Both the position numbers and the translations under genes were made by a program. 38,742 nucleotides of DNA from Enterobacteria phage Sf101. The notes under the pieces are model-generated. The model saw only the letters and a list, made by a program, of their open reading frames with translations. It had not been told where the DNA came from and searched no databases. The first letter of the stretch is position 1. Each line of letters begins with the position of its first letter. The stretch lies in sequence record KJ832078; one strand, 5' to 3'. Positions 1,843 through 35,534 of this stretch are shown here, piece after piece.

Positions 1843-4041
1843 ATGGCAGAAAAAAAGATGACTGACTGGCATCGCAAGGTGCTGTGCAACTTTGATAATG
1901 CCTGGTCAGCAACGCAGGATATGCGTGAGCAGATTATTGAGGCTCAACGTTTCGTCCGGGTGTCCGGCGCACAGTGGGAAGGCAGCACAAACGCTGGTTA
2001 CTCATTTGATGAAGGCAGGTTTGAGCATTACCCGCGCTTTGAACTGAATAAGATTGCCCGTGAATGTGATCGCATCATTGGCGAGTATCGACAGAATCGC
2101 ATCAGCGTTAAATTCAGACCGAAGGACGATAAGGCATCGGAAGCGTTAGCCGAAAAGATGAACGGCAAATTCCGCGCTGATTATCAGGAAACATCCGGTG
2201 GCGAAGCGTGTGATAACGCATTTGATGATGCTGTAACGGGCGGATTTGGTTGTTTCCGCATGTGTGCCGATTACGAAGATGAAATGGATCCGAGTAACGA
2301 GCAGCGACGCATCAGCCTTCTTCCTGTTTACGACCCAGCGACATGCGTCTTCTTCGATCAGGACAGCAAGCAATATGACCGTTCTGATGCTATGTGGGCT
2401 ATGGAAATGTTCTCCATGACGCCTAAAGCGTTCGAGGCTGAATACCCTGATTCCATCGCGGCAGGCCTTTCTCGTGATGACACTGGCACTCAATATGACT
2501 GGTCAACGCCAGATGCCATCTATGTTGGGCGCTACTACGAAGTTCGCATAGAGAAGGTGAAGCTCACGGCATGGCGCAACCCTGTTAGCGGAGAAACGGC
2601 AATCTATGATGAAGATCAAATCAAAGATATTGTCGACGAGCTGACCGATGGCGCATTCGAACTGATTGGCGAGCGGACAGTGAAGAAACGCCGCGTTTAT
2701 TGCGGTCTTCTGTCTGGCGCTGAATGGCTGGAAGAACCGAAGCGTATTCCGGGTGAACATATTCCTCTCATCCCGGTATATGGGCGTCGTTCATTTGTTG
2801 ATAATCAGGAGAGAATCGAAGGCCACGCAGCAAAAGCGATGGATGCACAGCGTCTTGAGAACCTGATGGTTTCCATGATTGCAGATAACGCTACTCAGGC
2901 TGGCGGTGATGGCATTCCTGTAGTTGATGTTGACATGATTCCTGGTCCTCTCGCCACTCATTGGGCGGAGCGCAACAAAAAGCGCCCGGCGTTCCTGCCG
3001 ATGGTCAGTCTGAAAAACAAAAACGGAGATATTACTGCGCAGGCTCAGGTCAGCAGTTATACGCCTCCGACACAAATGCCTCCAGCTCTTGCCGGGCTAT
3101 TGCAGTACACCGGAACGGCTATTCAGCAAATTACAGGTGCGTCGCAGCTTGAGAACATGCCGAGCAACGTCGCCACCGATACCGTTGATAGCATCTTTAA
3201 CCGGATGGATACGCAGTCCTATATCTACATGGACAACATGGCTAAATCCATGCGTCGCGCTGGCGTTGTGTGGCTTTCTATGGCGCGTGAGGTCTATGGC
3301 AGTGATACGCCGATGCGTATCGTTAATGAGGACGGCAGCGATGACGTGGCGCTGATGACTGGTGAAGTGGTTGACCGTCAGACAGGGCAGGTTATCGCGC
3401 TTAATGACCTTTCGCAGGGCAACTATGAAGTGACTGTCGATGTCGGTCAGTCGTTCGCTACTCGCCGTGATGCAACGGTTAAGTCGTTACTTTCCATGCT
3501 GGCACTTATCCCACCAGGAACGCCGAAGCACGACCTTGTATCGTCGATGATTCTCGACAATATGGACGGCGAAGGGATGGACGACCTTAAAGAATACAAC
3601 CGCAATCAGTTGCTTCTGTCTGGAGTTATCAAGCCGAGAACACCAGAAGAACAGAAGATGGTTGAGCAGGCGAAACAACAACAGGCCAGTCAGCCAGATC
3701 CGGCTATGGTTGCTGCGCAAGGTCAGCTTCTTGCTGGTCAGGCTGAATTGCAGAAAGCGCAGAACGAACAGGCAGCCATTCAGGTTAAAGCATTCCAGGC
3801 ACAGACTGATGCTCAGGTTGCAGCGGCAAATGTTGTGAAAATACTCGCATCTGCCGATAGTCAGCAGAAATCTGATATCCGCGAGGCTCTGAAACTGCTC
3901 GGACAGTTCCAGCAACAGCAAGGAGACAATGCCCGTGCTGATGCAGAGCTTGTCCTGAAAAGTCAGGCACAGGGTCATGCGCAGCGCATGGACATCAGCA
4001 GCATCCTGCAAAAATCAACTCAGCAACAACCACAGCAGTAA
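1843..4041 (+). CDS. Portal protein (P22 gp1 / Sf6 gp3-like)
   Basis: 732 aa, size and position typical of P22-like portal; Q-rich C-terminal helical barrel region (QQQASQPDPAMVAAQGQLLAGQAELQKAQNEQ...). Confidence 0.85.
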   Translation: MAEKKMTDWHRKVLCNFDNAWSATQDMREQIIEAQRFVRVSGAQWEGSTNAGYSFDEGRFEHYPRFELNKIARECDRIIGEYRQNRISVKFRPKDDKASEALAEKMNGKFRADYQETSGGEACDNAFDDAVTGGFGCFRMCADYEDEMDPSNEQRRISLLPVYDPATCVFFDQDSKQYDRSDAMWAMEMFSMTPKAFEAEYPDSIAAGLSRDDTGTQYDWSTPDAIYVGRYYEVRIEKVKLTAWRNPVSGETAIYDEDQIKDIVDELTDGAFELIGERTVKKRRVYCGLLSGAEWLEEPKRIPGEHIPLIPVYGRRSFVDNQERIEGHAAKAMDAQRLENLMVSMIADNATQAGGDGIPVVDVDMIPGPLATHWAERNKKRPAFLPMVSLKNKNGDITAQAQVSSYTPPTQMPPALAGLLQYTGTAIQQITGASQLENMPSNVATDTVDSIFNRMDTQSYIYMDNMAKSMRRAGVVWLSMAREVYGSDTPMRIVNEDGSDDVALMTGEVVDRQTGQVIALNDLSQGNYEVTVDVGQSFATRRDATVKSLLSMLALIPPGTPKHDLVSSMILDNMDGEGMDDLKEYNRNQLLLSGVIKPRTPEEQKMVEQAKQQQASQPDPAMVAAQGQLLAGQAELQKAQNEQAAIQVKAFQAQTDAQVAAANVVKILASADSQQKSDIREALKLLGQFQQQQGDNARADAELVLKSQAQGHAQRMDISSILQKSTQQQPQQ

Positions 4042-14665: not shown

Positions 14666-16408
14666 ATGTCAGATATCACCGCAAATATTGTGGTAAGCAT
14701 GCCTTCGCAACTCTTCACTATGGCGCGTTCTTTTAAAGCCGTAGCCAATGGCAAAATTTATATCGGAAAAATTGACACTGACCCGGTAAATCCTGAAAAC
14801 CAGATTCAGGTTTATGTAGAGAATGAAGACGGATCTCACGTCCCTGTTTCTCAGCCAATTGTTATCAATGCTGCCGGATATCCTGTGTACAACGGGCAGA
14901 TTGCCAAATTTGTAACTGAGCAAGGCCATTCAATGGCTGTATATGATGCGTATGGTTCGCAGCAGTTCTATTTTCAGAATGTGCTGAAGTACGATCCTGA
15001 TCAGTTAAAGCAGTTACTTCAATCAGATGAAGGAGCTGCTCACATTGGCACTAATAGCGGCAAAAATCTCCAAGAGGAGCTATTTGCAATAAAAAATCTC
15101 CAAGAGGAGCTATTTGCAATAAAAAATGAAATATATCAAGACCCGCTTACATCGTGGCCTTTCGGTGGAACATTAAAAATAAAGCAAGGGGTGTACGATA
15201 TCGCGTCACCATTAGTGCTTGATTACGGCAACTATGACGACAGACTTCCCGGTTCTCCTGGTGTTCGTGCCCATTACGAAGGCGAGAACATGGCGGAAAC
15301 CATCTTTAATTGTCAGGGTACGGATTTTAACCTCAAGATGCTAGGGGATACCGTTGGGGGGACCCAACGGGTGCATGCATACGATTATCTCGGGAATATT
15401 ACGCTTAAAGGCTCCGCAACATCTTACGGTCTTCTCGTAACCAAGAAAGCATATACCAAGTTAGAGAACATAGTATCTTACGGGCATGACAACGGCGAAG
15501 GTTTACGTACAGATTCTGTATTAACTTCTGAATTGGATAATGTGTACCTACAGTCAAATCGTATTGGGTGGCGAGTGCTTAATTCTGATGGTGGGTCAGA
15601 ACTTAATGCAATTACTGTCAACAGATTAACCGCAAGCCAGAATACACAATGGGGTATTCTTGGTGAGAGATGGGGTGCAGGGACTACCATCAATAGCCTT
15701 ACATGTGAGGGTAACGGCACGCAGGGTGACTCTGACACTGGCGGCATGATTATTAACGTGAACGGTCTTAATGGATCATGTGCTTTGGTACTTAATAACC
15801 CATATTTTGAGGCCAACGCCGGCGGTTCTGACCTTGCCATTAATAACACAGGCACACGTCCAGTAACAGTAGTTATCAACGGTGGAAACTTCCATCGGGG
15901 TAGTAGTACAGCGTACACTACCTACAACATTTTAGCTAGTTCTACTGGTGGAGGGAAATTAACAGTCATTCTCAACGGGACGACATTCCAGAGTGCTGGT
16001 AGTTACGTGCCAGACGCATCGCGGCCATACTGGCGAGAGTTAGGTAATGTTGAGTTTATAGATATAGGTTGCACGTTCATGGAGGCAACAAGTAAAGCAA
16101 TATCCATTTCCTCTGGCAGCATTCCACGTTCTGGAAGAATTAACGCCAATGGTAGTGTAGGCATCGCCCCGGGCGTGTCCTCGGTAAATGTGGTAGGTAC
16201 AGGTGTTTATGATGTAACTTTTTCTAACCCGCTCGCAGTAGCCGCGGATTGTTATGTGGTGCAGATAACGCCAATATCAGCACCCAATTCTGTGAGTTGT
16301 GATGTTACTTATATTGGCGTAGATACATTTAGGGTGACCCTGCGCGATACGCTTAGCGGAGCAGGAATCTCCAGTTCGTTTGCATTTAGCATTACCAGAC
16401 TACTATAA
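14666..16408 (+). CDS. Tailspike protein (P22 gp9-type head-binding domain + divergent receptor-binding domain)
   Basis: N-terminus [11 protein letters not shown]...[23 protein letters not shown]...NVLKYDPDQ matches the conserved P22/Sf6/HK620 head-binding domain; GGAG RBS 9 nt before ATG 14666 (the ORF-track start 14618 is probably an upstream extension); C-terminal ~450 aa do not match any tailspike I recognise. Confidence 0.9.
15062..15121 (+). repeat. Perfect 30-bp tandem duplication inside tailspike (in frame, [10 protein letters not shown] x2)
   Basis: aaaaatctccaagaggagctatttgcaata occurs twice head-to-tail (15062-15091, 15092-15121); a partial third copy (aaaaat) follows. Confidence 0.95.
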
Positions 16409-16461: not shown

Positions 16462-17634
16462 TTATTGATTGTTGTTTGTTAATGTGGGTATTAATTCTTT
16501 TACTAAAGTTGTGGTTTGTTTTGTTAATTTGATGAATGGCGTCTCTATTAATTTAAAAGTTAGGCATGATGTGAACGTAATAAGAAATGCAGTTGTGCTT
16601 ACCAGTATGATAAATGTATTTTCAGTGTAATTATTAGGAATAATCCACGTCATTAGGCAATAAAGGAATATCCCATGCAGAAGGTAAACGCTGTAGGTAG
16701 TTTCTCCTAGCTTTCTGGTTATATTTAATCTTAATATTCCATACAAATCACAACCTGATGCGATAATGATAAATGTTATTCCACAAAGAATCAGTGGTAG
16801 CGGTGCGTAAGTTGTTTTGAAATACGTCATTTCAAAAATCATTATCGCAGTTATTATAATTGGTGTTACTTTTGCTTTGGCAATTCCATTGACTATCTTT
16901 GATTTATTTAGCAAAAATGCCAGGAGCCCAAAAAGAAATGATACTATGTGTATTTTACTGAAAAATAAAATGAAAACAAATAGCGATATTGCGCTAATCA
17001 TAACCATGTAAATACTGACTTTTCTTTTTATGAGCGCGGAAATTACCGGAAGAGAAAAATAAAAGAACCATTCATATACAAGTGTCCATGTTACAGCGGC
17101 ATTGATAGTAAATGAATCTTTTACGTCATTAATGTTCGGCATACCTAGTGCAGTGAATGGCAACCACTTCATTATTGACACAAAAAGCTCTTCTGTGGAT
17201 ACCTGCATTCTCCATCCAGACTTAAAACCTACAATGATAAAAATGAGACATAGGCTAACTATGAACATTGGGGTTAATCGTAGTAATCTTGATACATAAA
17301 GCCTTGTCCAGTCCTGATCTCCAGAGATAATCTTTGAAAAGAACAGATAACCAGTAATCATAAAAAAGAATGACACACCAACTTGGCCTAAATTTGCTAA
17401 CAGATTTGATGAAGGTGCTTCCCATACTCCAGATGACAAGTATCCATTCCAAATTGCTGCGTGATGAATAAGCACGAAAATTGCTAAGAACCCCCGCATT
17501 CCATCTATTTGATTATTCCTGCCGTGCTCAACAAGATTTATTGGGGAAATTTTATCAAATAACCCCACAGCTAATAACGACATCAATATCACGGATGTTA
17601 TTAATAATAAACTGTTAATTTCAATCATATGCAT
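16462..17634 (-). CDS. Acyltransferase-3 family integral membrane protein (putative O-antigen acetyltransferase)
   Basis: 390 aa, multiple hydrophobic segments; N-terminal family signature (NQIDGMRGFLAIFVLIHHAAIW); strongly AT-rich relative to the rest of the genome; sits between tailspike and attP/int like oac in Sf6 and gtrABC in P22. Confidence 0.8.
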   Translation of the reverse strand: MHMIEINSLLLITSVILMSLLAVGLFDKISPINLVEHGRNNQIDGMRGFLAIFVLIHHAAIWNGYLSSGVWEAPSSNLLANLGQVGVSFFFMITGYLFFSKIISGDQDWTRLYVSRLLRLTPMFIVSLCLIFIIVGFKSGWRMQVSTEELFVSIMKWLPFTALGMPNINDVKDSFTINAAVTWTLVYEWFFYFSLPVISALIKRKVSIYMVMISAISLFVFILFFSKIHIVSFLFGLLAFLLNKSKIVNGIAKAKVTPIIITAIMIFEMTYFKTTYAPLPLILCGITFIIIASGCDLYGILRLNITRKLGETTYSVYLLHGIFLYCLMTWIIPNNYTENTFIILVSTTAFLITFTSCLTFKLIETPFIKLTKQTTTLVKELIPTLTNNNQ

Positions 17635-18399: not shown

Positions 18400-19578
18400 A
18401 TGGCTATAAGCGACACAAAACTGCGTACTATTTATGGTAAACCATATTCGGGCCCACAAGAAGTGGCTGATGCCGATGGCCTCAGCGTACGAATTTCACC
18501 GAAGGGGGTCATCCAGTTCCAGTACCGCTATCGCTGGCATGGCAAGCCTAATCGACTTGGGCTTGGTCGATACCCATCCCTGTCTTTGAAGGATGCCAGA
18601 CAGATCACTGCTGACTTGCGAAAGCTCTATTTCTCAGGAACGGATCCACGCACTTATTTTGAAGAGAAGGTGGAGAACTCCATGACGGTCGCCCAGTGTC
18701 TCGACTACTGGTTCGACAACTACGTCTCTACAACTCTCAGAGAAAAGACCCAGGCACTTTACCGATCAACGGTTATGAAGCGCATGCATGACGCCTTCCC
18801 TAATCGTCCGGCATCTTCTATCACGGTTAAGCAATGGGTTGACCTGCTTACCGAAGAAGAAAGAGATAATCCACGCCGAGCAAGGCAGGTGCTAAGTCAA
18901 CTAAGATCAGCAATAAGTTGGTGCATGCGGCGTCAGTTGATAGATAGTTGCGCAATTATGAGCATCCAGCCAAGGGACTTCGGCTCACGCGCTGAGGTAG
19001 GGGATCGGGTACTGTCGTATCACGAACTGGCTAAGATTTGGCTTGCTATTGAAAGAAGCCGTGCTTCTACGTCAAATAAGCTGCTTCATCAGATGCTTAT
19101 GCTGTGGGGGGCGAGGCTCTCAGAGCTTAGGCTGGCAACAAAGACAGAATTTGACCTGCTGGACAACGTATGGACCGTACCGAAAGAGCATAGCAAGATG
19201 GGCAATGTTATCCGCCGTCCAATCTTCGAACAAATTAAGCCTTTCCTCGATAAAGCCATGACAACGTACAATGATGTTCTTTTCCCTGGAGAAGACATAA
19301 ACAAACCGATCAGCATCGCTGCAGCCAACCGATTCGTAAATAGAATAAGGGGAGGGATGGATATAGGTTACTGGCGAACACATGATTTCAGAAGAACGCT
19401 TGTTACACGTCTGTCCGAGATGAATGTCGAGCCTCATGTTACTGAGCGAATGCTCGGTCATGAACTTGGCGGGATAATGTCCGTATACAATAAACACGAC
19501 TGGATAGAGGCTCAGCGCAAAGCGTATGAGCTTCACGCTGATAAATTGTTCTGGCACATCAGGAGCATTTCTGATTAA
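18400..19578 (+). CDS. int: Tyrosine integrase
   Basis: 392 aa; C-terminal catalytic-type motifs (GARLSEL, HDFRRT, LGHE...SVYNKHD); preceded by arm-type repeats. Confidence 0.9.
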   Translation: MAISDTKLRTIYGKPYSGPQEVADADGLSVRISPKGVIQFQYRYRWHGKPNRLGLGRYPSLSLKDARQITADLRKLYFSGTDPRTYFEEKVENSMTVAQCLDYWFDNYVSTTLREKTQALYRSTVMKRMHDAFPNRPASSITVKQWVDLLTEEERDNPRRARQVLSQLRSAISWCMRRQLIDSCAIMSIQPRDFGSRAEVGDRVLSYHELAKIWLAIERSRASTSNKLLHQMLMLWGARLSELRLATKTEFDLLDNVWTVPKEHSKMGNVIRRPIFEQIKPFLDKAMTTYNDVLFPGEDINKPISIAAANRFVNRIRGGMDIGYWRTHDFRRTLVTRLSEMNVEPHVTERMLGHELGGIMSVYNKHDWIEAQRKAYELHADKLFWHIRSISD

Positions 19579-22374: not shown

Positions 22375-22671
22375 TCAGTCATTACTGATAGCGCCATAGC
22401 GTGAGCGGTAATTACGCAGGCGCGGGTCGATATATTCAGGGAAGTGGGTATATGTGGCTTTGCGGAATGGTCGGATTGATGTCTGGTAAATTCGCTCGCG
22501 TTCTTCTTTCTCTGCAAGCCATATACAGTGGCGAAATTCCTTTTCCTCTTTTGTTTCCTGCGGTAGCGACATTATCCGGTCGTAGTTTTTTCTGAATTTA
22601 TCCAGCACCTCCGATACGGAATTGCCGGAACAGCGGCGCGTGTCATCCGCACCATACAGAGGCGCTGGCAT
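22375..22671 (-). CDS. Hypothetical early protein (downstream of erf/ssb)
   Basis: 98 aa ORF; in the position where P22-type phages carry anti-RecBCD (abc) genes, but I cannot confirm homology. Confidence 0.45.
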
Positions 22672-22694
22672 AATGGAATCCTTATTTTGCTATT

Positions 22695-23078
22695 TTAGAA
22701 GGGAATTGAATCGTCGTATTCAGGATGATTTTGATGATTGCTACTTTGTTGCTGTTGGCTGTTTCCTGAAGTTGCAAATCCAATCTTTGCATTCAGTAAT
22801 TCAAGAGTGATTGATTGACCATTTTGCCCCTGATAAACATCAACCATGATGTTTTCTCCGGTAATTTCAACAATGCCACCTTCAACAAGAACACTACGGT
22901 AGTAATCCGCTTGCGCTCCCGGCTTGGCAAATACAACGGCGCTGTAGTTTGTCCATTCTTTCTTTTTTGTCTGGCGATCGTAATACTGAACGCCAGCACG
23001 GATGTTGAATCCGATATTTTCCCCGGCCTGAAACTCTCTTGCGGGCTTGTTTAGTCTTACAGTAATCGAATGTGCCAT
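22695..23078 (-). CDS. Single-stranded DNA-binding protein-like
   Basis: ORF-track 22695..23168; start taken at internal ATG 23078, 1 nt overlap with the erf stop. C-terminus ...EYDDSIPF matches the conserved acidic SSB tail (E. coli SSB ends DDDIPF); Q-rich linker precedes it. Confidence 0.65.
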   Translation of the reverse strand: MAHSITVRLNKPAREFQAGENIGFNIRAGVQYYDRQTKKKEWTNYSAVVFAKPGAQADYYRSVLVEGGIVEITGENIMVDVYQGQNGQSITLELLNAKIGFATSGNSQQQQSSNHQNHPEYDDSIPF

Positions 23079-23683
23079 TAAGCAGCCGCTCCTTCTAATT
23101 CGTCTCGTCTGATGTTGTAAACGTCCTGCGCTTTGTGCTGCTCCGGTGTGCCTTCGAGCATCTTCCACGCTTTGGCGAACGCCTGTTTAAGCTCTTCCAC
23201 GGTGTTTTTCTGCATTGCTGCGTCAGTGAATGCTTTTAGAACCTGTTCAGGTGTAAGTGATGGTTTTGATTGCTTTGCTGCTGCGTTCTGCTGATGTTTA
23301 TGCTCGTCTGTATCTGCATCTTTCGCATCATCAATGCCGAACAAACCATTGAGGCAATACTTGCGTGCATAAGAGCTTGTAGCTCCCGTAACTTGTGCAG
23401 AATCCATTCCTTTCTTGCTTTCTTCCTCTCGTGCAAGAGCGGTTGCCGTATGACTGTTTTCGCCATCGGTAATAGTTGCCGTGGCTTTCACGTAATACCG
23501 ATCACCAATCAACACAACTTCATCGCTGATTGATAAAAACAGGCCATTCAGTAGCGGCTTAACGCCTTCAAGAATGTCTTCGCAGCTTCTGTATTTATAT
23601 TTACCGAATGAGTTGTACTGATTCTTTGGCGCGTTCAGATTCTTCTGAATAGCAGCCAGTCTTGCGTAAAATTCTTTGCTCAT
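23078..23683 (-). CDS. erf: Erf recombination protein (P22 Erf-like)
   Basis: From MSKEFYARLAAIQKNLNAPKNQYNSFGKYKYRSCEDILEGVKPLL... closely matches P22 Erf as recalled; ORF-track start 23713 would add 10 residues. Confidence 0.85.
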   Translation of the reverse strand: MSKEFYARLAAIQKNLNAPKNQYNSFGKYKYRSCEDILEGVKPLLNGLFLSISDEVVLIGDRYYVKATATITDGENSHTATALAREEESKKGMDSAQVTGATSSYARKYCLNGLFGIDDAKDADTDEHKHQQNAAAKQSKPSLTPEQVLKAFTDAAMQKNTVEELKQAFAKAWKMLEGTPEQHKAQDVYNIRRDELEGAAA

Positions 23684-23939
23684 ATGATTGTTCTCAGAAT
23701 GGACATGGCCCAAGGAAATAACGCTGATTTAATACTTCGACTTTGGACAAATTAAGGCATACCCGCATTCCTTCGCGGTCACCATTATGGCGATACCAGA
23801 GAGCTTTCTGCGTGTACATGCGCCTCTGTAACTTGCTCTCCTTCACTGTGGTTGCAAGTGACATGAATATCTCCTTCGTTACCGATTAATTCTTTCATCT
23901 GACGAATGAATTCTTCGTCTGACCAGTTATCTGTAAAAC

Positions 23940-25828: not shown

Positions 25829-26029
25829 TCAGGCAGCCTTGTTATTCTGTTTACCAAGTTCTCTGGCAATCATTGCCGTCGTTCGTATTGCCCATTTATC
25901 GACATATTTCCCATCTTCCATTACAGGAAACATTTCTTCAGGCTTAACCATGTATTCCGATTGCAGCTTGCATCCATTGCATCGCTTGAATTGTCCACAC
26001 CATTGATTTGTATCAATAGTCGTAGTCAT
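25829..26029 (-). CDS. ral: Ral restriction-alleviation protein
   Basis: 66 aa MTTTIDTNQWCGQFKRCNGCKLQSEYMVKPEEMFPVMEDGKYVDKWAIRTTAMIARELGKQNNKAA, matching lambda Ral as recalled. Confidence 0.85.
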   Translation of the reverse strand: MTTTIDTNQWCGQFKRCNGCKLQSEYMVKPEEMFPVMEDGKYVDKWAIRTTAMIARELGKQNNKAA

Positions 26030-26107: not shown

Positions 26108-26434
26108 TCAAATAAGTGGTTTGCTGCCTAATTTCATTTTCTGGCGACCAACACAAGTCACACCCATTTCACTGCGTGGCTTGCTGTACCATGTGCGCTG
26201 ATTCTTGCGCTCAATACGTTGCAGGTTGCTTTCAATCTGTTCGTGGTATTCAGCCAGCACCGTAAGGTCTATCGGATTCAGTGCGCTTTCTACTCGTGAT
26301 TTCGGTTTGCGATTCAGCGAGAGAATAGGGCGGTTAACTGGTTTTGCGCTTACCCCAACTAACAGGGGATTTGCTGCTTTCCATTGAGCCTGTTTCTCTG
26401 CGCGACGTTCGCGGCGGCGTGTTTGTGCATCCAT
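26108..26434 (-). CDS. N: Antitermination protein N (lambda type)
   Basis: 108 aa with arginine-rich motif MDAQTRRRERRAEKQAQWKAANPLLVG...; near-identical to lambda N as recalled. Confidence 0.9.
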   Translation of the reverse strand: MDAQTRRRERRAEKQAQWKAANPLLVGVSAKPVNRPILSLNRKPKSRVESALNPIDLTVLAEYHEQIESNLQRIERKNQRTWYSKPRSEMGVTCVGRQKMKLGSKPLI

Positions 26435-26701
26435 CTGGATTCTCCTGTCAGTTAGCTTTGGTGGTGTGGTGGCTGGTAGTCTAGCTCCAGCTTGTTGAGT
26501 CTCATTCGGAGGGGTATAACCGGCACCCCAGCGATTTTTCCATGCGACAACGTGCGCGTTATGGCGGCCTTATCGCCCGCGGCTCCCCATCTCGTCCACG
26601 CTATTGCTAGCGTTGGGAGCGCTTCACCGCTCAACAGTAGGTAAGCACTTGCCAGTGACTAGCTGGCTTCACCACACCCCAAAGCCTTCTGCTTTGAATG
26701 C

Positions 26702-26732
26702 TGCCCTTCTTCAGGGCTTAATTTTTAAGAGC
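26702..26732 (-). promoter_or_regulatory. nutL (boxB hairpin + boxA-like element)
   Basis: Minus strand reads GCTCTTAAAAATTAAGCCCTGAAGAAGGGCA; boxB GCCCTGAAGAAGGGC is the plus-strand palindrome at 26702-26716. Confidence 0.7.
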
Positions 26733-26777
26733 CTCACCTTCATGGTGGTCAGTGCGTCCTGCTGATGGCTTAAAATT

Positions 26778-26814
26778 ACAAGAAAGATTGTATATTGTAA
26801 ACAAGAAATATTGT
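26778..26814. promoter_or_regulatory. OL operators (434-type ACAA-N6-TTGT sites) / PL region
   Basis: ACAAGAAAGATTGT (26778-26791) and ACAAGAAATATTGT (26801-26814), with a possible third degenerate site between them. Confidence 0.7.
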
Positions 26815-26894
26815 AAAAAGGGGCGTGAAAAACAAACTCCATTGTTTTTAAATGAAAAATAGTTTGTTTTTGGTTATCGAGATTGAGGTGGGGA

Positions 26895-28247
<1,353 letters not shown>

Positions 28248-28255
28248 GACATTCC

Positions 28256-28287
28256 CGCTCTTACACATCCCAGCCCTGAAAAAGGGC
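28256..28287 (+). promoter_or_regulatory. nutR (boxA CGCTCTTAC + boxB GCCCTGAAAAAGGGC)
   Basis: boxA at 28256-28264, boxB hairpin at 28273-28287, directly after cro. Confidence 0.8.
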
Positions 28288-28363
28288 ATTACCAGAAACA
28301 AATCTCTATGGTTTTGCGTTTCTTTGCGAAGCCAACTCTATCTAATCATTAAGGAAATTATCT

Positions 28364-28645
28364 ATGGGTACTATTGCAACTAAAAGCAAGAAAGCGGCTC
28401 GCATCGAGTCAGCCTTGCTGAACAAACTGGCACTGATGGGGCAGAAGACATTCGCTCGAGCAATGGGGGTTCCTGAATATCAGGTAAGCCGATGGAAGAA
28501 TGGTTTCTTCTCGCAGGTAAGCATGATGCTTGCTGTTCTGGAATACGGAATCGAAGACGATGAAATGGCTGAATTGACTAAGCGGCTTGCCGATTACCTG
28601 ACAAAAGAAAAAGCCCCGAAGAACGGCGAATTCTTCGAGGCCTAA
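28364..28645 (+). CDS. cII: CII-like transcriptional activator
   Basis: 93 aa; [14 protein letters not shown]...QVSRWK...[19 protein letters not shown] parallels lambda CII. Confidence 0.85.
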
Positions 28646-28679
28646 TGTAGAAAGACTGGATCAATCCACGGGAGTAATT

Positions 28680-28826
28680 ATGACAAAACAACTCAGTCCT
28701 TACCAGGACAAAATTCACAAACACATACTACGTGATCGCTTCCTGTCCAGCTTCAAGCAGCCTGGTCGATTCCGGGCTGAGTTGGAAAAAGTGAAGCTGA
28801 TGCAGAAGGAGAAAGGTCATGAGTAA
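28680..28826 (+). CDS. Small ORF between cII and O (48 aa)
   Basis: Hand-translated [48 protein letters not shown]; its stop overlaps the O start codon. Confidence 0.35.
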
Positions 28827-29679
28827 TCTTGCAACCGTAACACATTTAAGGCCTTCACAACGGCCTGTGGAGCGTCGTGTGGCAGAAGTTGAAGATGGTT
28901 ATACCCGTCTTGCAAATGCCCTGTATGAAGAGCTTATCGGAGCAGATTTAACGAAAAATCAGAGCAAGGTTGCCCACGCCATATGCCGTAAAACATACGG
29001 CTACGGTAAAAAGATGGATCGCATCTCTGATAGTCAGTTAGCTCAAATTACCAGGCTGCCAAGACAGAAGGTAAACAAGGCCAAGAATGAGCTTATCGCG
29101 ATGAAGGTTATCCTTCGCGAAGGCCAGCAAATCGGGCCTAACAAGAACATCGAGGAATGGCAAATAGAAGGGTGTCACTACTCTGGTGATAATGTCACTG
29201 CATTGGTGACAAAAAGTGTCACCAAAACGGTGACAGCGCTGTCACCAAAACAGGGACACACAAAAGAAACTATTACAAAAGAAAAAAGAAATAATAAAAA
29301 CACTATGTCCGAAAGTGTTCGGACGGAGTGTGAAAAATCACATGACCGTCACGAAGAAACCGACAAGGCATTCGAGGAAATATTCTGGTGTGCAGGCATG
29401 CGGAAAGCCGGGAAGAAAAACGCAGCTTCGGCATTCAGAACACAGTTCAGGGAATGGCGTAAAACTACCAGGGGTACGGCAAGCGAGTTTGCCACGATGC
29501 TGGCAGAAGACATCGCATGCAGGAATGGTAAGCAGTTCGGATTCGACAGGTTGTTACCATCGAGCTACCTGAACGGTCAACGCTGGAACGACGAGAAGCC
29601 AGAAACTATTCAACCACAATCCAAACCATCATCCGCAATCACCGTATCGAAAACTGGCTACGTGTTTTTCGACAGGTGA
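28819..29679 (+). CDS. O: Replication initiator, lambda O-like
   Basis: 286 aa; N-terminal region resembles lambda O; contains the iteron array; RBS GGAGAAAGG upstream. Confidence 0.8.
29196..29310. repeat. Replication origin: iterons inside the O gene followed by an AT-rich tract
   Basis: Repeated GGTGACA / TGTCACC elements (tggtgacaaaaagtgtcaccaaaacggtgacagcgctgtcaccaaaaca) then a ~45-bp A-rich stretch (29267-29310), the classic lambdoid ori architecture. Confidence 0.6.
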
Positions 29680-29682
29680 ACC

Positions 29683-29790
29683 ATGAAATCAAAAATCAAA
29701 TCGCTACTGGTTGCTGGTTATAACCACGGCTGGTTAAGTATTTCGTTTGTCGATTTCTGGTTTAAAAATCTCAATCTGAGGGAATCATGA
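29683..29790 (+). CDS. Micro-ORF (35 aa) between O and primase-helicase
   Basis: MKSKIKSLLVAGYNHGWLSISFVDFWFKNLNLRES; its TGA overlaps the ATG of the next gene (ATGA). Hand-translated. Confidence 0.25.
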   Translation: MKSKIKSLLVAGYNHGWLSISFVDFWFKNLNLRES

Positions 29791-31667
29791 CGCCAAGTGA
29801 ACTTAGCGACCTGCTTTGGGCGCAGGTTGACAGGGTGGCTCCGCACCTGTTGCCAAACGGCAAGAAAGAGGGGCATGAGTGGGTTGCCGGTAACGTCAAT
29901 GGTGACAAGGGAAACAGCCTTAAGGTCAACCTTAGCGGCAAGAAAAAATGGGCTGATTTCGCTGAGGGAGACGGCGGTGACATGCTTGATTTGTGGATGG
30001 CATGTCGTGGAATTAACCTGCATCAGGCTATGCAGGAAGCGAAAGCATTTCTCGGTATCAAGGATGACGATCACCATTTCGATGCCAAACGTGAGAAAAA
30101 ATTCTCCAGACCTGATCGCAAGAAAATCGCCCGCTACGTTACCAGAACAGAATCCCATCTTGAGTACCTGCAATCGCGTGGCATATCGCCAGAAGTCGTA
30201 AAGCGCTACGAGGTTGTCAGCGGCAAGGTGTGGAATGGAGAACGAGAACTTGATGCACTGGTGCTTCCGTACAAACGCGATGGTGAGTTGTTGCAGGTCA
30301 AGCGAATCAGCACTGAGCGCCCGGACGGGAAGAAAGTCATTATGGCAGAAGGTGATTGCGAACCTTGTCTGTTCGGATGGCAGGCTCTGGACGCTGGCGT
30401 GAGGGCGGTTGTACTTTGCGAAGGCGAAATTGATTGTATGAGCTATGCGCAATACGGCATCTCGGCGTTATCCGTGCCGTTTGGTGGCGGGAAAGGCGCT
30501 AAGCAACAGTGGATTGAGTTTGAGTATCACAACCTCGACAGGTTTGAGGAAATATTCATCTCGATGGACGTTGATGATGTTGGTCGTGAAGCCGCAAGGG
30601 AAATCGCAAGCCGACTCGGTGAACATCGTTGCCGTCTTGTTACTCTGCCGTACAAAGACATCAACGAATGCCTGATGAACGGTGTTACCGAGGATGAAAT
30701 CTGGCAGTACATCGGCACGGCATCCTACTTTGATCCTGAAGAACTCTACAGCGCGCGAGAGTTTTACCAGGACACTATCAACGCTTTCTACGGCAAGCAG
30801 CAGTATCTGTTTAATCCACCGTGGGAATCTCTGGCAGATAAATTCCAGTTTCGTGAGGCCGAGTTGACGCTGGTCAATGGTGTGAACGGTCACGGAAAAA
30901 CGGAGGTTGTCGGGCATATGGCACTTGAGGCAATGCGTCAGGGTGTGAAGACGTGCATCGCGTCACTTGAGCTGAAGCCTGGTATTCTCCTTAAGCGCCT
31001 TACCCGTCAGGCGACGTGCTGCAAGATGCCGCCAGTGCTGGAAATTGACTCTGCATTTAAATTTTATGACGAAAGACTTTGGGTGTTTGGCCTGACTGGA
31101 ACGGCGAAAGCCGACAGGCTGATCGAAATATTCGACTACGCTCGCCGCCGATACGGCATCCAGTTATTCATCATCGACAGCCTGATGAAATGCGGCATAG
31201 GTGACGATGACTATAACGGGCAGAAAGCATTTGTTGACTCGATTTGTGACTTCAAAAACAAAACAAACTCCCACGTCATTCTCGTTACTCACTCCAGAAA
31301 AGGAGATAGCGAAGAAAAACCAACCGGGAAAATGGACGTAAAAGGCTCTGGAGCGATAACAGACCTGACAGACAACCTTTTTATCATCTGGCGTAACAAG
31401 GCTCGCGAGAGAGCGTTACAGAGAGTTCAGAGTGGTGAAAAGATGTCAGAGAAGGACGAACAGCTACTGGCATCTCCGGCATCTGTTTTGATGCTTGAAA
31501 AACAACGTAACGGCGAAGGTTGGGAAGGTGGTGTCCCGTTGTTCCTTGACGAGCAATCGCACCAGTTCCTGCAACTTGAATCAGGATCGCCTTATAGCTA
31601 CATCGCCAATATGCCGAAATCGGAATATGACGAGGCGTGGCGACAGGAAAACGTGACGGAGTATTAA
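29787..31667 (+). CDS. Bifunctional DNA primase (TOPRIM) / DnaB-family helicase
   Basis: 626 aa; acidic TOPRIM-like motifs (LCEGEIDCMSYAQ, ISMDVDDVGREAA); C-terminal RecA-fold with Walker A GVNGHGKT and Walker B LFIIDSL. Confidence 0.8.
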   Translation: MTPSELSDLLWAQVDRVAPHLLPNGKKEGHEWVAGNVNGDKGNSLKVNLSGKKKWADFAEGDGGDMLDLWMACRGINLHQAMQEAKAFLGIKDDDHHFDAKREKKFSRPDRKKIARYVTRTESHLEYLQSRGISPEVVKRYEVVSGKVWNGERELDALVLPYKRDGELLQVKRISTERPDGKKVIMAEGDCEPCLFGWQALDAGVRAVVLCEGEIDCMSYAQYGISALSVPFGGGKGAKQQWIEFEYHNLDRFEEIFISMDVDDVGREAAREIASRLGEHRCRLVTLPYKDINECLMNGVTEDEIWQYIGTASYFDPEELYSAREFYQDTINAFYGKQQYLFNPPWESLADKFQFREAELTLVNGVNGHGKTEVVGHMALEAMRQGVKTCIASLELKPGILLKRLTRQATCCKMPPVLEIDSAFKFYDERLWVFGLTGTAKADRLIEIFDYARRRYGIQLFIIDSLMKCGIGDDDYNGQKAFVDSICDFKNKTNSHVILVTHSRKGDSEEKPTGKMDVKGSGAITDLTDNLFIIWRNKARERALQRVQSGEKMSEKDEQLLASPASVLMLEKQRNGEGWEGGVPLFLDEQSHQFLQLESGSPYSYIANMPKSEYDEAWRQENVTEY

Positions 31668-31744
31668 ATGACCATCTACATCACTGAGCTTGTAACAGGC
31701 CTGCTGGTAATCGCAGGCCTTTTTATTTGGGGGAGAGGGAAGTC

Positions 31745-32185
31745 ATGAAAAAACTAACCTTTGAAATTCGATCTCCAGCACATCAGCAAAACGCTATTCA
31801 CGCAGTACAGCAAATCCTTCCAGACCCAACCAAACCAATCGTAGTAACCATTCAGGAACGCAACCGCAGCTTAGACCAGAATCGAAAGCTTTGGGCTTGC
31901 CTTGGTGACGTCTCTCGTCAGGTTGAATGGCATGGTCGCTGGCTGGATGCAGAAAGCTGGAAGTGTGTGTTTACCGCAGCATTAAAGCAGCAGGATGTTG
32001 TTCCTAACCTTGCCGGGAATGGCTTTGTGGTAATAGGCCAGTCAACCAGCAGGATGCGTGTAAGCGAATTTGCGGAGCTATTAGAGCTTATACAGGCATT
32101 CGGTACAGAGCGTGGCGTTAAGTGGTCAGACGAAGCGCGACTGGCTCTGGAGTGGAAAGCGAGATGGGGAGATCGGGCTGCATGA
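31745..32185 (+). CDS. ninB: NinB (Orf-family recombination protein)
   Basis: MKKLTFEIRSPAHQQNAIHAVQQILPDPTKPIVVTIQERNRSLDQNRKLWACLGD... matches lambda NinB as recalled; ORF-track start 31727 adds 6 residues. Confidence 0.9.
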   Translation: MKKLTFEIRSPAHQQNAIHAVQQILPDPTKPIVVTIQERNRSLDQNRKLWACLGDVSRQVEWHGRWLDAESWKCVFTAALKQQDVVPNLAGNGFVVIGQSTSRMRVSEFAELLELIQAFGTERGVKWSDEARLALEWKARWGDRAA

Positions 32186-32709
32186 CTATCAAATCAAATA
32201 CGCCAGCACACGACAAGGACTGCTGGCAAACGCCGCTTTGGCTTTTTGATGCACTGGATATTGAGTTTGGATTCTGGCTGGATTCGGCAGCGAGCGACAA
32301 AAATGCTCTGTGTGCTCACTGGCTAACTGAGGCCGACGACGCGCTCAATTCTGAGTGGGTAAGCCACGGTGCAATCTGGAATAACCCACCGTACAGCAAT
32401 ATCAGGCCGTGGGTGGAAAAAGCCGCTGAGCAGTGCATACAACAGCGACAGACGGTAGTTATGCTTGTGCCAGAGGATATGTCAGTCGGATGGTTCAGCA
32501 AGGCTCTGGAGAGTGTTGACGAAGTTCGCATTATCACTGATGGACGGATTAATTTTATCGAACCATCGACAGGGCTGGAGAAGAAGGGAAACAGCAAAGG
32601 CTCCATGCTGCTGATTTGGCGACCGTTCATCAGTCCTCGACGGATGTTTACTACCGTATCCAAAGCGGCATTGATGGCGATCGGGCAGGGCGTCAGGAGG
32701 GCGGCATGA
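32182..32709 (+). CDS. Dam-like N6-adenine DNA methyltransferase (orphan)
   Basis: ATG at 32182 overlaps the ninB stop; contains catalytic NPPY motif ([10 protein letters not shown]); no adjacent restriction endonuclease. Confidence 0.75.
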
Positions 32710-32882
32710 GGCGACAGCGACGAAGTTTCACCGACATCATCTGCGAAAACTGCAAATACCTTCCAACGAAACGCTCCAGAAATAAACGCAAGCCAATCCC
32801 AAAAGAATCTGACGTAAAAACCTTCAACTACACGGCTCACCTGTGGGATATCCGGTGGCTAAGACATCGTGCGAGGAAATGA
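32706..32882 (+). CDS. ninE: NinE
   Basis: [58 protein letters not shown] resembles lambda NinE; ATGA overlap with the methylase stop. Confidence 0.8.
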
Positions 32883-33295
32883 CAATGGATTATTCACAGT
32901 TAAGTGATTTTGAAATTAACAGACGAGTATGTGAGGCTTTAGATATGGAGGAGCATTTCTTCATACCTGATGACGAAGCAGACTTCGATTCTGAGCTCCC
33001 AACTGACGAAAGAGGTCCTATTTGGCAGACGCAAAAAAGGGATATTAATGGCTTCCGTTCTTCAAACGGAAATTGCTTCAATCCTTGCAATAATCCTGAA
33101 TATGCGTGGCCAATTATCACTGAAAACAAAATCAGCATAATGTTTGATAGTACCGATACGAGATATGAAGGCGAATATCACGAGTGGTGTGATGCGATTT
33201 CATCTTGTCAAAAGTTCGGAATTCAGTATCAGTCTAATCCACTCCGCGCCGCCATGATTGTCTTTCTCATGATGCAGGACGCCAATAATGCTTAG
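32879..33295 (+). CDS. NinX-like hypothetical protein
   Basis: 138 aa from ATG 32879 (overlaps the ninE stop); sits between ninE and ninF where P22 carries ninX; lower GC than neighbours. Confidence 0.45.
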
Positions 33296-33464
33296 CCCAT
33301 CCCAATCCCTTCAATACCAGAAAGAAAGCGTCGAGCGGGCTTTAACGTGCGCTAACTGCGGTCAGAAGCTGCATGTGCTGGAAGTTCACGTGTGTGAGCA
33401 CTGCTGCGCAGAACTGATGAGCGATCCGAATAGCTCGATGCACGAGGAAGAAGACGATGGCTAA
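33288..33464 (+). CDS. ninF: NinF
   Basis: Hand-translated 58 aa [58 protein letters not shown], matching lambda NinF; below the ORF-track size cutoff. Confidence 0.8.
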
Positions 33465-34068
33465 ACCAGCGCGAAGACGATGTAAAAACGATGAATGTCG
33501 GGAATGGTTTCACCCTGCATTCGCCAATCAGTGGTGGTGCTCTCCAGAGTGTGGAACCAAGATAGCACTCGAACGACGAAGCAAAGAACGCGAAAAAGCG
33601 GAAAAGGCAGCAGAGAAGAAACGACGACGAGAGGAGCAGAAACAGAAAGATAAACTTAAGATTCGAAAACTCGCCTTAAAGCCCCGCAGTTACTGGATTA
33701 AACAAGCCCAACAAGCCGTAAACGCCTTCATCAGAGAAAGAGACCGCGACTTACCATGTATCTCGTGCGGAACGCTCACGTCTGCTCAGTGGGATGCCGG
33801 ACATTATCGGACAACTGCTGCGGCACCTCAACTCCGATTTGATGAACGCAATATTCACAAGCAATGCTTGGTGTGCAACCAGCACAAAAGCGGAAATCTC
33901 GTTCCGTATCGCGTCGAACTGATTAGCCGCATCGGGCAGGAAGCAGTAGACGAAATCGAATCAAACCATAACCGCCATCGCTGGACTATCGAAGAGTGCA
34001 AGGCGATCAAGGCAGAGTACCAACAGAAACTCAAAGACCTGCGAAATAGCAGAAGTGAGGCCGCATGA
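33457..34068 (+). CDS. ninG: NinG (Rap-like recombination endonuclease)
   Basis: 203 aa; cysteine-rich N-terminus ([12 protein letters not shown]...WWCSPECG) and HNH-like region ([10 protein letters not shown]...[11 protein letters not shown]), as in lambda NinG. Confidence 0.9.
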
Positions 34069-34271
34069 CGTTCTCAGTAAAAACCATTCCAGACATGCTC
34101 GTTGAAGCATACGGAAACCAGACAGAAGTAGCACGCAGACTGAAATGTAGTCGCGGTACGGTCAGAAAATACGTTGATGATAAAGACGGGAAAATGCACG
34201 CCATCGTCAACGACGTTCTCATGGTTCATCGCGGATGGAGTGAAAGAGATGCGCTATTACGAAAAAATTGA
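34065..34271 (+). CDS. ninH: NinH
   Basis: 68 aa [39 protein letters not shown]... matches lambda NinH (Fis-like HTH). Confidence 0.85.
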
Positions 34272-34914
34272 TGGCAGCAAATACCGAAATATTTGGGTAG
34301 TTGGCGATCTGCACGGATGCTACACGAACCTGATGAACAAACTGGATACGATTGGATTCGACAACAAAAAAGACCTGCTTATCTCGGTGGGCGATTTGGT
34401 TGATCGTGGTGCAGAGAACGTCGAATGCCTGGAATTAATCACATTCCCCTGGTTCAGAGCTGTACGTGGAAACCATGAGCAAATGATGATTGATGGCTTA
34501 TCAGAGCGTGGAAACGTTAATCACTGGCTGCTTAATGGCGGTGGATGGTTCTTTAATCTCGATTACGACAAAGAAATTCTGGCTAAAGCTCTTGCCCATA
34601 AAGCAGATGAACTTCCGTTAATCATCGAACTGGTGAGCAAAGATAAAAAATATGTCATCTGCCACGCCGATTATCCTTGTGACGAATACGAGTTTGGAAA
34701 ACCAGTTGATCATCAGCAGGTAATCTGGAACCGCGAACGAATCAGCAACTCACAAGACGGGATCGTGAAAGAAATCAAAGGTGCGGACACGTTCATCTTT
34801 GGTCATACGCCAGCAGTGAAACCACTCAAGTTTGCCAACCAGATGTATATCGATACCGGCGCAGTGTTCTGCGGAAACCTCACATTGATTCAGGTACAGG
34901 GAGAAGGCGCATGA
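34249..34914 (+). CDS. Ser/Thr protein phosphatase (lambda NinI-type)
   Basis: 221 aa from internal ATG 34249; metallophosphatase motifs GDLHG, GDLVDRG, GNHE. Confidence 0.9.
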
Positions 34915-35534
34915 GACTCGAAAGCGTAGCTAAATTTCATTCGCCAAAAAGCCCGATGATGAGTGACTCACCACGGGCCACGGCTTCTGACTCTCTTTCC
35001 GGTACTGATGTGATGGCTGCTATGGGGATGGCGCAATCACAAGCCGGATTCGGAATGGCTGCATTCTGTGGTAAGCACGAACTCAGCCAGAACGACAAAC
35101 AAAAGGCTATCAACTATCTGATGCAATTTGCACACAAGGTATCGGGGAAATACCGTGGTGTGGCAAAGCTCGAAGGAAATACTAAGGCAAAGGTACTGCA
35201 AGTGCTCGCAACATTCGCTTATGCGGATTATTGCCGTAGTGCCGCGACGCCTGGTGCAAGATGCAGAGATTGCCACGGTACAGGCCGTGCGGTTGATATA
35301 GCCAAAACGGAGCAGTGGGGGAGAGTTGTTGAGAAAGAGTGCGGAAGATGCAAAGGTGTCGGCTATTCAAGAATGCCAGCAAGCGCCGCATATCGCGCTG
35401 TAACGATGCTAATCCCAAACCTTACCCAACCCACCTGGTCACGCACTGTTAAGCCGCTGTATGACGCTCTGGTGGTGCAATGCCACAAGGAAGAGTCAAT
35501 CGCAGACAATATTTTGAATACGGTCACACGTTAG
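34911..35534 (+). CDS. Q: Late antiterminator Q (lambda type)
   Basis: 207 aa with zinc-binding cysteines (CRDCHGTG...CGRCKG); GGAG RBS; immediately upstream of pR'. Confidence 0.9.

Follow-up and report, generated by a model that had tools for sequence, protein, structure and literature searches.

An orphan adenine methyltransferase identical to M.EcoVT2Dam in the nin region of Enterobacteria phage Sf101 and its probable role in GATC methylation

The nin region of Enterobacteria phage Sf101 carries, between ninB and ninE, a methyltransferase gene (here dam) whose product is identical to M.EcoVT2Dam. We consider it likely, at roughly 80%, that this product is an orphan GATC methylase which is made as a delayed-early function and tops up the GATC methylation of phage DNA. 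The analysis covered the whole sequence record KJ832078, 38,742 nucleotides, referred to here as the window; all coordinates are those of the window unless another genome is named. The published description of Sf101, a serotype-converting phage of Shigella flexneri, gives 38,742 bp, 47.4% G+C and a largest product of 911 aa, values which agree with the window (PMC4159516).

The gene itself is already known. It has been annotated between ninB and ninE for many years, and for the identical protein both cloning and GATC specificity were reported in 2001. Judged by its matches to PF05869 and TIGR01712, dam is the well-known orphan adenine methyltransferase of lambdoid phages. Below we document the identity, position, motifs and fold class of dam; the selective benefit of the GATC top-up is one that we infer.

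Organization of the nin Region

The leftmost 16 kb of the Sf101 genome comprise a P22-like packaging and virion module. Between the tailspike gene and the early-left operon, an Acyl_transf_3 O-antigen acyltransferase gene (oacB-type, serotype conversion) adjoins the integrase gene (16462-17634, minus strand, and 18400-19578, plus strand). The surroundings of dam in the early-right region are as follows:

28819-29679: O-like replication protein
29787-31667, plus strand: Toprim/DnaB-type primase-helicase
31697-31730, plus strand: tR2-like intrinsic terminator in the gap between the primase-helicase gene and ninB, an 8-pair stem with 6 G-C pairs and then TTTTTATTT (T-run)
31745-32185, plus strand: ninB (Orf recombination mediator), PF05772, E 1e-54
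32166-32171, plus strand: GGGGAG, Shine-Dalgarno-like in sequence and putative in function, inside the 3' end of ninB and 10 nt upstream of the dam ATG
32182-32709, plus strand: dam, orphan phage N6-adenine DNA methyltransferase of 175 aa (PF05869, TIGR01712, PADLOC, identity with the VT2-Sakai protein)
32695-32700, plus strand: the sequence AGGAGG, 5 nt upstream of the ninE start
32706-32882, plus strand: ninE, PF05322, E 4e-43
32885-33295, plus strand: ninX, PF10765, E 8e-14
33288-33464: ninF
33457-34068: ninG (Rap)
34065-34271: ninH
34249-34914: ninI phosphatase
34911-35534: Q
3' of Q: holin, endolysin and Rz

The arrangement is that of a delayed-early nin region, a rightward operon extending from the replication genes to Q and located 3' of a tR2-type terminator. 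The dam reading frame (175 aa) begins with the ATG at 32182 and ends with the TGA at 32707-32709, as seen in the sequence and its translation. Its start codon (32182-84) overlaps the TGA of ninB (32183-85), and its stop codon (32707-09) is overlapped by the ATG of ninE (32706-08), each time as ATGA. An earlier reading of the window from its letters alone (the sequence-only reading) had described dam as translationally coupled to both neighbors. The overlaps are indeed there at both ends, and they make the coupling probable. A GTG at 32122 was considered as an alternative start and dropped: the ATG at 32182 gives the product that is annotated in VT2-Sakai, with the Pfam match setting in at residue 4.

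In lambda, NinB (40644-41084) is followed by NinC (41081-41953), NinD (41950-42123) and NinE (42090-42272). Nucleotide homology between the two genomes breaks off precisely with the stop codon of ninB (32185 = lambda 41084); it is found again from 32713 (lambda 42097) onward, 7 nt into ninE. The segment on the ninB side is 97% identical to lambda 40567-41084, and both flanks are 97-99% identical. With breakpoints at these two places, the difference is therefore a clean cassette swap for ninC and ninD, and the sequence-only reading was right in assigning dam to the ninC/ninD slot. The lambda genes occupy the same slot with equally tight packing, but NinC (290 aa, annotated as PAPS-reductase-like) and NinD (57 aa) are both unrelated to the dam product.

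Two further features of the region were observed. The 626-aa protein encoded at 29787-31667 (plus strand), a fusion of a Toprim primase and a DnaB-like helicase, replaces lambda P 3' of the O-like initiator, as it does in mEp043. The gene ninX, located between ninE and ninF, is extra relative to lambda. In the published description, the Sf101 nin region is 'identical to that of phage HK544' except for ninX, with 43% identity (PMC4159516).

Protein Family, Conserved Motifs and Predicted Fold

The product of dam matches the Pfam family PF05869, 'DNA N-6-adenine-methyltransferase (Dam)', over nearly its full length (E 6.4e-65, 218 bits, profile positions 1-167 of 169) and the NCBIfam equivalog TIGR01712, 'phage N-6-adenine-methyltransferase', at 266 bits. 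Both scores are above the curated cut-offs of the families, 28.1 bits for PF05869 and 97 bits for TIGR01712. The protein also falls into PHROG 111 ('DNA methyltransferase'), and its best match in PADLOC is 'orphan methyltransferase' (oMTase). The identification of the reading frame as a Dam-family N6-adenine methyltransferase with an NPPY motif, first made from the letters, is thereby confirmed. Three conserved motifs were delineated:

32224-32235, plus strand: WQTP codons, aa 15-18, conserved N-terminal motif (from conservation)
32272-32295, plus strand: FWLDSAAS codons, aa 31-38, motif I-like AdoMet-binding strand and loop (from conservation and a predicted strand)
32383-32394, plus strand: NPPY codons, aa 68-71, putative catalytic motif IV, in which the flipped target adenine would be bound (from sequence and conservation)

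Conservation was read from an alignment of 45 homologs with 59-94% identity, originating from Escherichia, Pectobacterium, Serratia, Edwardsiella, Providencia, Yersinia, Photorhabdus and others. N68, P69, P70 and Y71 are invariant in this alignment, and so are F31, L33, D34 and A36 of the second motif. In WQTP, T17 and P18 do not vary, and conservation is at least 90% for W15 and Q16. A (D/N)PPY motif and an acidic AdoMet-binding strand preceding it are thus both present, and they are invariant or nearly so across the 45 homologs.

A sequence search of the PDB yielded no solved relative of the dam product, only chance matches (E 0.24 or higher). The AlphaFold2 model built on the 45-sequence alignment (mean pLDDT 88.4, pTM 0.86) consists of one alternating strand-helix domain, with a strand at residues 31-36 and NPPY at the end of the strand formed by residues 64-68. 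When the model was compared with the PDB using Foldseek, the catalytic domain of PCIF1/CAPAM was the only strong match (E ~1e-4, TM 0.54-0.61), and other adenine methyltransferases ranked far below it. The fold matches were confined to the catalytic domains of larger N6-adenine methyltransferases, and by these matches FWLDSAAS probably represents motif I. The predicted structure is that of a small single-domain methyltransferase of the Rossmann fold, devoid of a separate target-recognition domain.

The alpha-class enzymes E. coli Dam, T4 Dam and DpnM (PF02086) have in common with the dam product the reported target GATC, N6-methyladenine as the reaction product, the use of AdoMet and a (D/N)PPY motif. 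However, the PF02086 (MethyltransfD12) profile has no match in the dam product, and none of the three is its closest structure. The nearest folds are those of PCIF1 and the gamma-class adenine methyltransferases, for which reason the protein is not a homolog of E. coli Dam. Considering the PCIF1-like fold, the order of the motifs (FxLDxAA and then NPPY) and the lack of a PF02086 match, the protein is therefore 'Dam' by target and Pfam name only. The gamma-class domains (M.TaqI, M.BseCI, MmeI, CamA and type I HsdM) and PCIF1/CAPAM are 11-17% identical to it, but these enzymes are two to four times larger and possess target-recognition or RNA-binding domains that are absent here. PCIF1/CAPAM, moreover, is a eukaryotic enzyme whose substrate is the cap-adjacent adenosine of RNA and not DNA. 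The model shows the dam product as a minimal gamma-like N6-adenine methyltransferase, which would have converged on the site of the host Dam.

Enzymes of the Hia5, Hin1523 and M.EcoGII type are likewise prophage-borne orphan m6A methyltransferases, for which an anti-restriction role has been proposed. Hia5, Hin1523 and Nme1821 differ from the dam product in belonging to a family other than PF05869 and in being almost without sequence specificity. They are related to the Dam enzymes of E. coli and T4 and to DpnM with 100% HHsearch probability (PMC3299994). A non-specific methyltransferase of the Hia5 type was consequently dropped as a candidate for dam: those proteins are alpha-class Dam relatives (PMC3299994), and the dam product has no PF02086 match.

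Reported Target and Distribution

The dam product is identical to VT2-Sakai orf32 (NP_050531.1) at all 175 of 175 residues. The latter is the orphan methyltransferase M.EcoVT2Dam, 'known to target 5'-GATC-3'' (PMC6602927, citing Radlinska & Bujnicki 2001). GATC would then be the target of the Sf101 enzyme as well, as reported, at second hand, for the identical protein. The assays of those authors are said to have been restriction digests, in which extra, weaker target sites would escape exclusion. Copies of M.EcoVT2Dam are also present in STEC lysogens (99.2% in Table 3 of PMC6602927), whose PacBio methylomes contained only GATC and CTGCAG, plus CRARCAG in 95NR1 (PMC6602927). The sequence-only reading expected the methylase to write a new motif. 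That expectation is not supported, since the identical protein is reported to be GATC-specific and the STEC lysogen methylomes hold no motif attributable to a new specificity. The target being the host Dam site, no new motif is to be expected, and the scope for anti-restriction is therefore narrow.

The order ninB-dam-ninE is found in VT2-Sakai with the same 4-nt overlaps, and in HK97 the corresponding gene (NP_037744.1) lies between those for NinB and NinE. In both phages the position and the 4-nt overlaps are as in Sf101. The gene is also carried by HK544, mEp043, Phi24B and many Stx1 and Stx2 phages. While the protein is the same (VT2-Sakai copy), the genomic background here is different from that in the Stx phages and HK97, Sf101 being a P22-like, Sf6-like podovirus.

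Copies of dam with at least 95% nucleotide identity were detected in 242 phage records, and 162 have copies with at least 99%. Among complete E. coli genomes, 1566 of 5426 (~29%) contain the gene, in up to five copies each. Distant homologs of the PF05869 family occur in 1906 of 50,697 phage records, among them siphoviruses of E. coli, Shigella and Klebsiella and phages of Vibrio, Campylobacter, Lactococcus and Staphylococcus.

Variation between ninB and ninE

The occupancy of the slot was surveyed in 80 IMG/VR viral contigs that encode an identical NinB. The gene next after ninB is dam in 44 contigs, ninD in six and ninC in five; ninE follows directly in 23, and one contig has an HNH gene plus dam. 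The commonest occupant of the slot is thus dam, which is one of several alternative cassettes. With nothing between ninB and ninE in 23 of the 80 contigs, dam is dispensable.

In the contig with the HNH gene (L023, 10438-11492), the open reading frame between ninB and dam encodes an endonuclease of the HNH_3 family (homing-type). It starts with MTIKSNTPA, the first nine residues of Dam, and the methylase that follows has another N-terminus (MIKHKSETPKEVRD...). By its sequence, the HNH frame seems to have been inserted into dam at the 5' end. An 'HNH endonuclease' is likewise listed under the match in the phage record PV189407.1.

Timing of Expression

The terminator at 31697-31730 is presumably tR2, judged by its position relative to lambda, in which the region 40567-41084 holds tR2. 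The nin genes of lambda, located 3' of tR2, need antitermination by N. In Sf101, dam would belong to the delayed-early genes read from PR, its transcription depending on antitermination by N at the tR2-like terminator.

The dam gene of Phi24B encodes a protein 100% identical to NP_050531.1, and in the Phi24B study the corresponding clone, CM2, changed significantly on norfloxacin induction. Lytic-linked profiles were seen in the same study for four of the five CMAT genes tested, dam included, with lom as the exception. Going by this literature on the identical protein, dam is probably made in lytic growth and not in the lysogen. The position of dam behind a tR2-like terminator of the PR operon, the lytic pattern of the Phi24B gene and the STEC lysogen methylomes together argue against an epigenetic role in lysogens. 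The idea that the methylase could alter host gene expression in lysogens, raised in the sequence-only reading, finds no backing here, all the more so since host Dam already methylates GATC.

GATC Methylation and the Role of dam

Dam methylation of virion DNA is incomplete in lambda (~50%), P22 and L (PMC3299994; PMC8022706), apparently because replication outruns the host Dam. We propose that the dam product would raise GATC methylation on fast-replicating phage DNA left partly methylated by limited host Dam. The reaction would proceed through AdoMet-dependent base flipping, NPPY holding the adenine and the methyl group being passed to N6, as the family and the fold suggest. Our best guess is that progeny DNA would in this way be protected from nucleases that cut un- or hemimethylated GATC, namely MutH during the ongoing infection and Dam-sensitive restriction enzymes of the host infected next. 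Candidate benefits would include a shield from restriction enzymes blocked by GATC methylation, a shield from MutH, and regulatory uses. No phenotype of dam loss was found in the papers searched, and what phage Dam enzymes do 'is still not well understood' (PMC7556043).

There are 68 GATC sites in the window (1-38742), compared with 196 expected from a maximal-order Markov model and 150 from base composition. This makes GATC the second most depleted 4-bp palindrome of the window, after CTAG. Enterobacteriophages are known to avoid GATC, and components of methyl-directed mismatch repair have been held responsible (McClelland 1984; Deschavanne & Radman 1991; both cited in PMC5014478); the second of these studies is cited there for lower phage yields in dam- mutH+ cells. 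If dam remedied an undermethylation, its carriers might be expected to avoid GATC less; such a relaxation was not seen. The observed/expected ratio is 0.35 in the window vs. 0.55 in lambda, and among cluster representatives of the IMG/VR contigs encoding identical NinB the medians are 0.48 for Dam+ (n = 33) and 0.45 for Dam- (n = 30; Mann-Whitney p = 0.52), a weak test as mosaic exchange is rapid. With this reservation, the result speaks against the top-up, and the empty slots in 23 of 80 contigs speak against the top-up being essential.

The same observations bear on a narrower explanation, which we regard as a tentative and on balance unlikely possibility: the main benefit would be escape from methyl-directed mismatch repair and not from restriction. 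Full GATC methylation would block nicking by MutH, so that breaks would be avoided and a barrier to recombination between diverged lambdoid phages would be lifted. Both the avoidance of GATC in the genome (68 vs. 196), attributed to mismatch repair (PMC5014478), and the undermethylation of phage DNA by host Dam (PMC3299994; PMC8022706) are consistent with such a benefit, as is the company of dam, which includes the recombination functions NinB (Orf), NinG (Rap), Erf and Abc2. However, GATC avoidance is no weaker in the Dam-carrying relatives, and the nin neighbors are a mosaic of unrelated functions, so the position of the gene is weak evidence.

We consider it improbable that dam serves the regulation or development of the phage itself, whether by way of Dam-sensitive promoters, the origin, packaging or the stability of lysogeny. 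Such roles have precedents in the Dam-dependent cleavage of pac in P1 and in the requirement of host Dam for stable 933W lysogeny. The authors of the Phi24B study suggested that the enzyme could supplement host Dam in the maintenance of lysogeny, and phase variation of phage gtr operons is Dam-dependent (PMC8022706). Nevertheless, no GATC cluster is evident among the 68 sites, be it at the immunity region, at the origin or elsewhere; five of them are in 26400-29800. In addition, 23 of 80 close relatives have nothing in the slot, so no essential step can need dam, and in Phi24B the identical gene is expressed lytically and not lysogenically.

We would also bet heavily against a specificity that relaxes past GATC in lytic growth, or a full GATC methylation that disables MutH repair and thereby aids recombination together with NinB and NinG.

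That dam is a selfish or neutral passenger cassette of no benefit to the phage is very unlikely. The polymorphism of the slot (Dam 44, empty 23, NinD 6, NinC 5) and the variant in which an HNH homing-type endonuclease is inserted at the 5' end of dam would fit a passenger, but the catalytic residues are strictly conserved across genera down to 59% identity. Dam is, besides, the most frequent gene in the slot (44 of 80), and its family extends to phages of many hosts (1906 of 50,697 records).

Orphan Status, Ral and Restriction

The genes surrounding dam encode NinB, NinE, NinX, NinF, NinG, NinH and NinI, among which NinG is a recombination (Rap) nuclease and not a restriction enzyme. The scanned open reading frames of the early-left, early-right, lysis and conversion regions contained no match to endonuclease families of restriction-modification systems. 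Within this set dam has no adjoining cognate endonuclease, as is typical of an orphan methyltransferase, and it lacks the neighboring endonuclease of matching specificity that would mark the M subunit of a type II system. The arrangement ninB-dam-ninE without an endonuclease recurs in VT2-Sakai, in HK97 and in 44 of the 80 related contigs. The absence of a cognate endonuclease near dam, noted in the sequence-only reading, accordingly holds for the scanned frames, and it agrees with the oMTase match in PADLOC.

A gene concerned with restriction is nevertheless found in the other early operon:

25829-26029, minus strand: ral (type I restriction alleviation), directly 3' of N in the PL operon, PF11058, E 4e-47
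26108-26434: N protein, upstream of ral in the leftward operon

Lambda Ral, like the proposed anti-restriction activity of dam, concerns host restriction, and the two genes are present in the same genome. Ral, however, works quite differently: a protein of 66 aa, it modulates type I enzymes and is not a methyltransferase. It belongs to another operon, and it is not co-inherited with dam. Co-inheritance was ruled out by the presence of Ral in 11 of 29 Dam+ loci and six of 23 Dam- loci (Fisher p = 0.39). The two genes assort independently, and their occurrence together is therefore a chance pairing of separate modules, not a system.

The least probable explanation, to which we give hardly any credence, is that the phage has in this methylase a second and independent device against restriction, which would modify a motif other than that of the host, act against many restriction-modification systems and reprogram expression in the lysogen. 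Some phage orphan methyltransferases do protect against restriction; dam has no endonuclease partner, Ral is present too, and the digest assays reportedly used in 2001 would leave room for extra target sites. Against this stand the GATC specificity reported for the identical enzyme, a site already methylated by host Dam, the STEC lysogens with only GATC, CTGCAG and, in 95NR1, CRARCAG (PMC6602927), the location of the gene behind a terminator of the PR operon with a lytic pattern in Phi24B, and the independence of Dam and Ral (p = 0.39). Of the two independent anti-restriction functions that had been proposed for Sf101, Ral is present and assorts independently of dam; a broad anti-restriction activity of the methylase is not supported, its site being that of host Dam. 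Broad restriction evasion by the dam product is unlikely. No experimental report of a dam-dependent rise in plating on restricting hosts was found in the literature.

Two observations on the gene content of these operons may be added. The VT2-Sakai annotation has a 'Lar-like restriction alleviation protein' at 15792-16034 (3793-4035 of the extracted locus, L001), just upstream of ninB and overlapping its start, so some dam carriers have another restriction-alleviation gene alongside. In Sf101, the early-left operon (22375-23713, minus strand) encodes P22-type Erf, an SSB-like protein and the anti-RecBCD protein Abc2, and not lambda Exo, Bet and Gam, together with lambda-type N and Ral.

Implications

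If full GATC methylation did disable MutH, dam, NinB (Orf) and NinG (Rap) would promote recombination and mosaicism among diverged lambdoid phages. On the preferred reading, that of a delayed-early top-up of GATC methylation, the question is a modest one: why phages whose hosts already have Dam so often retain another GATC methylase, not homologous to it, and yet avoid GATC. The answer would bear on how phages handle undermethylated, fast-replicating DNA, MutH and Dam-sensitive restriction.
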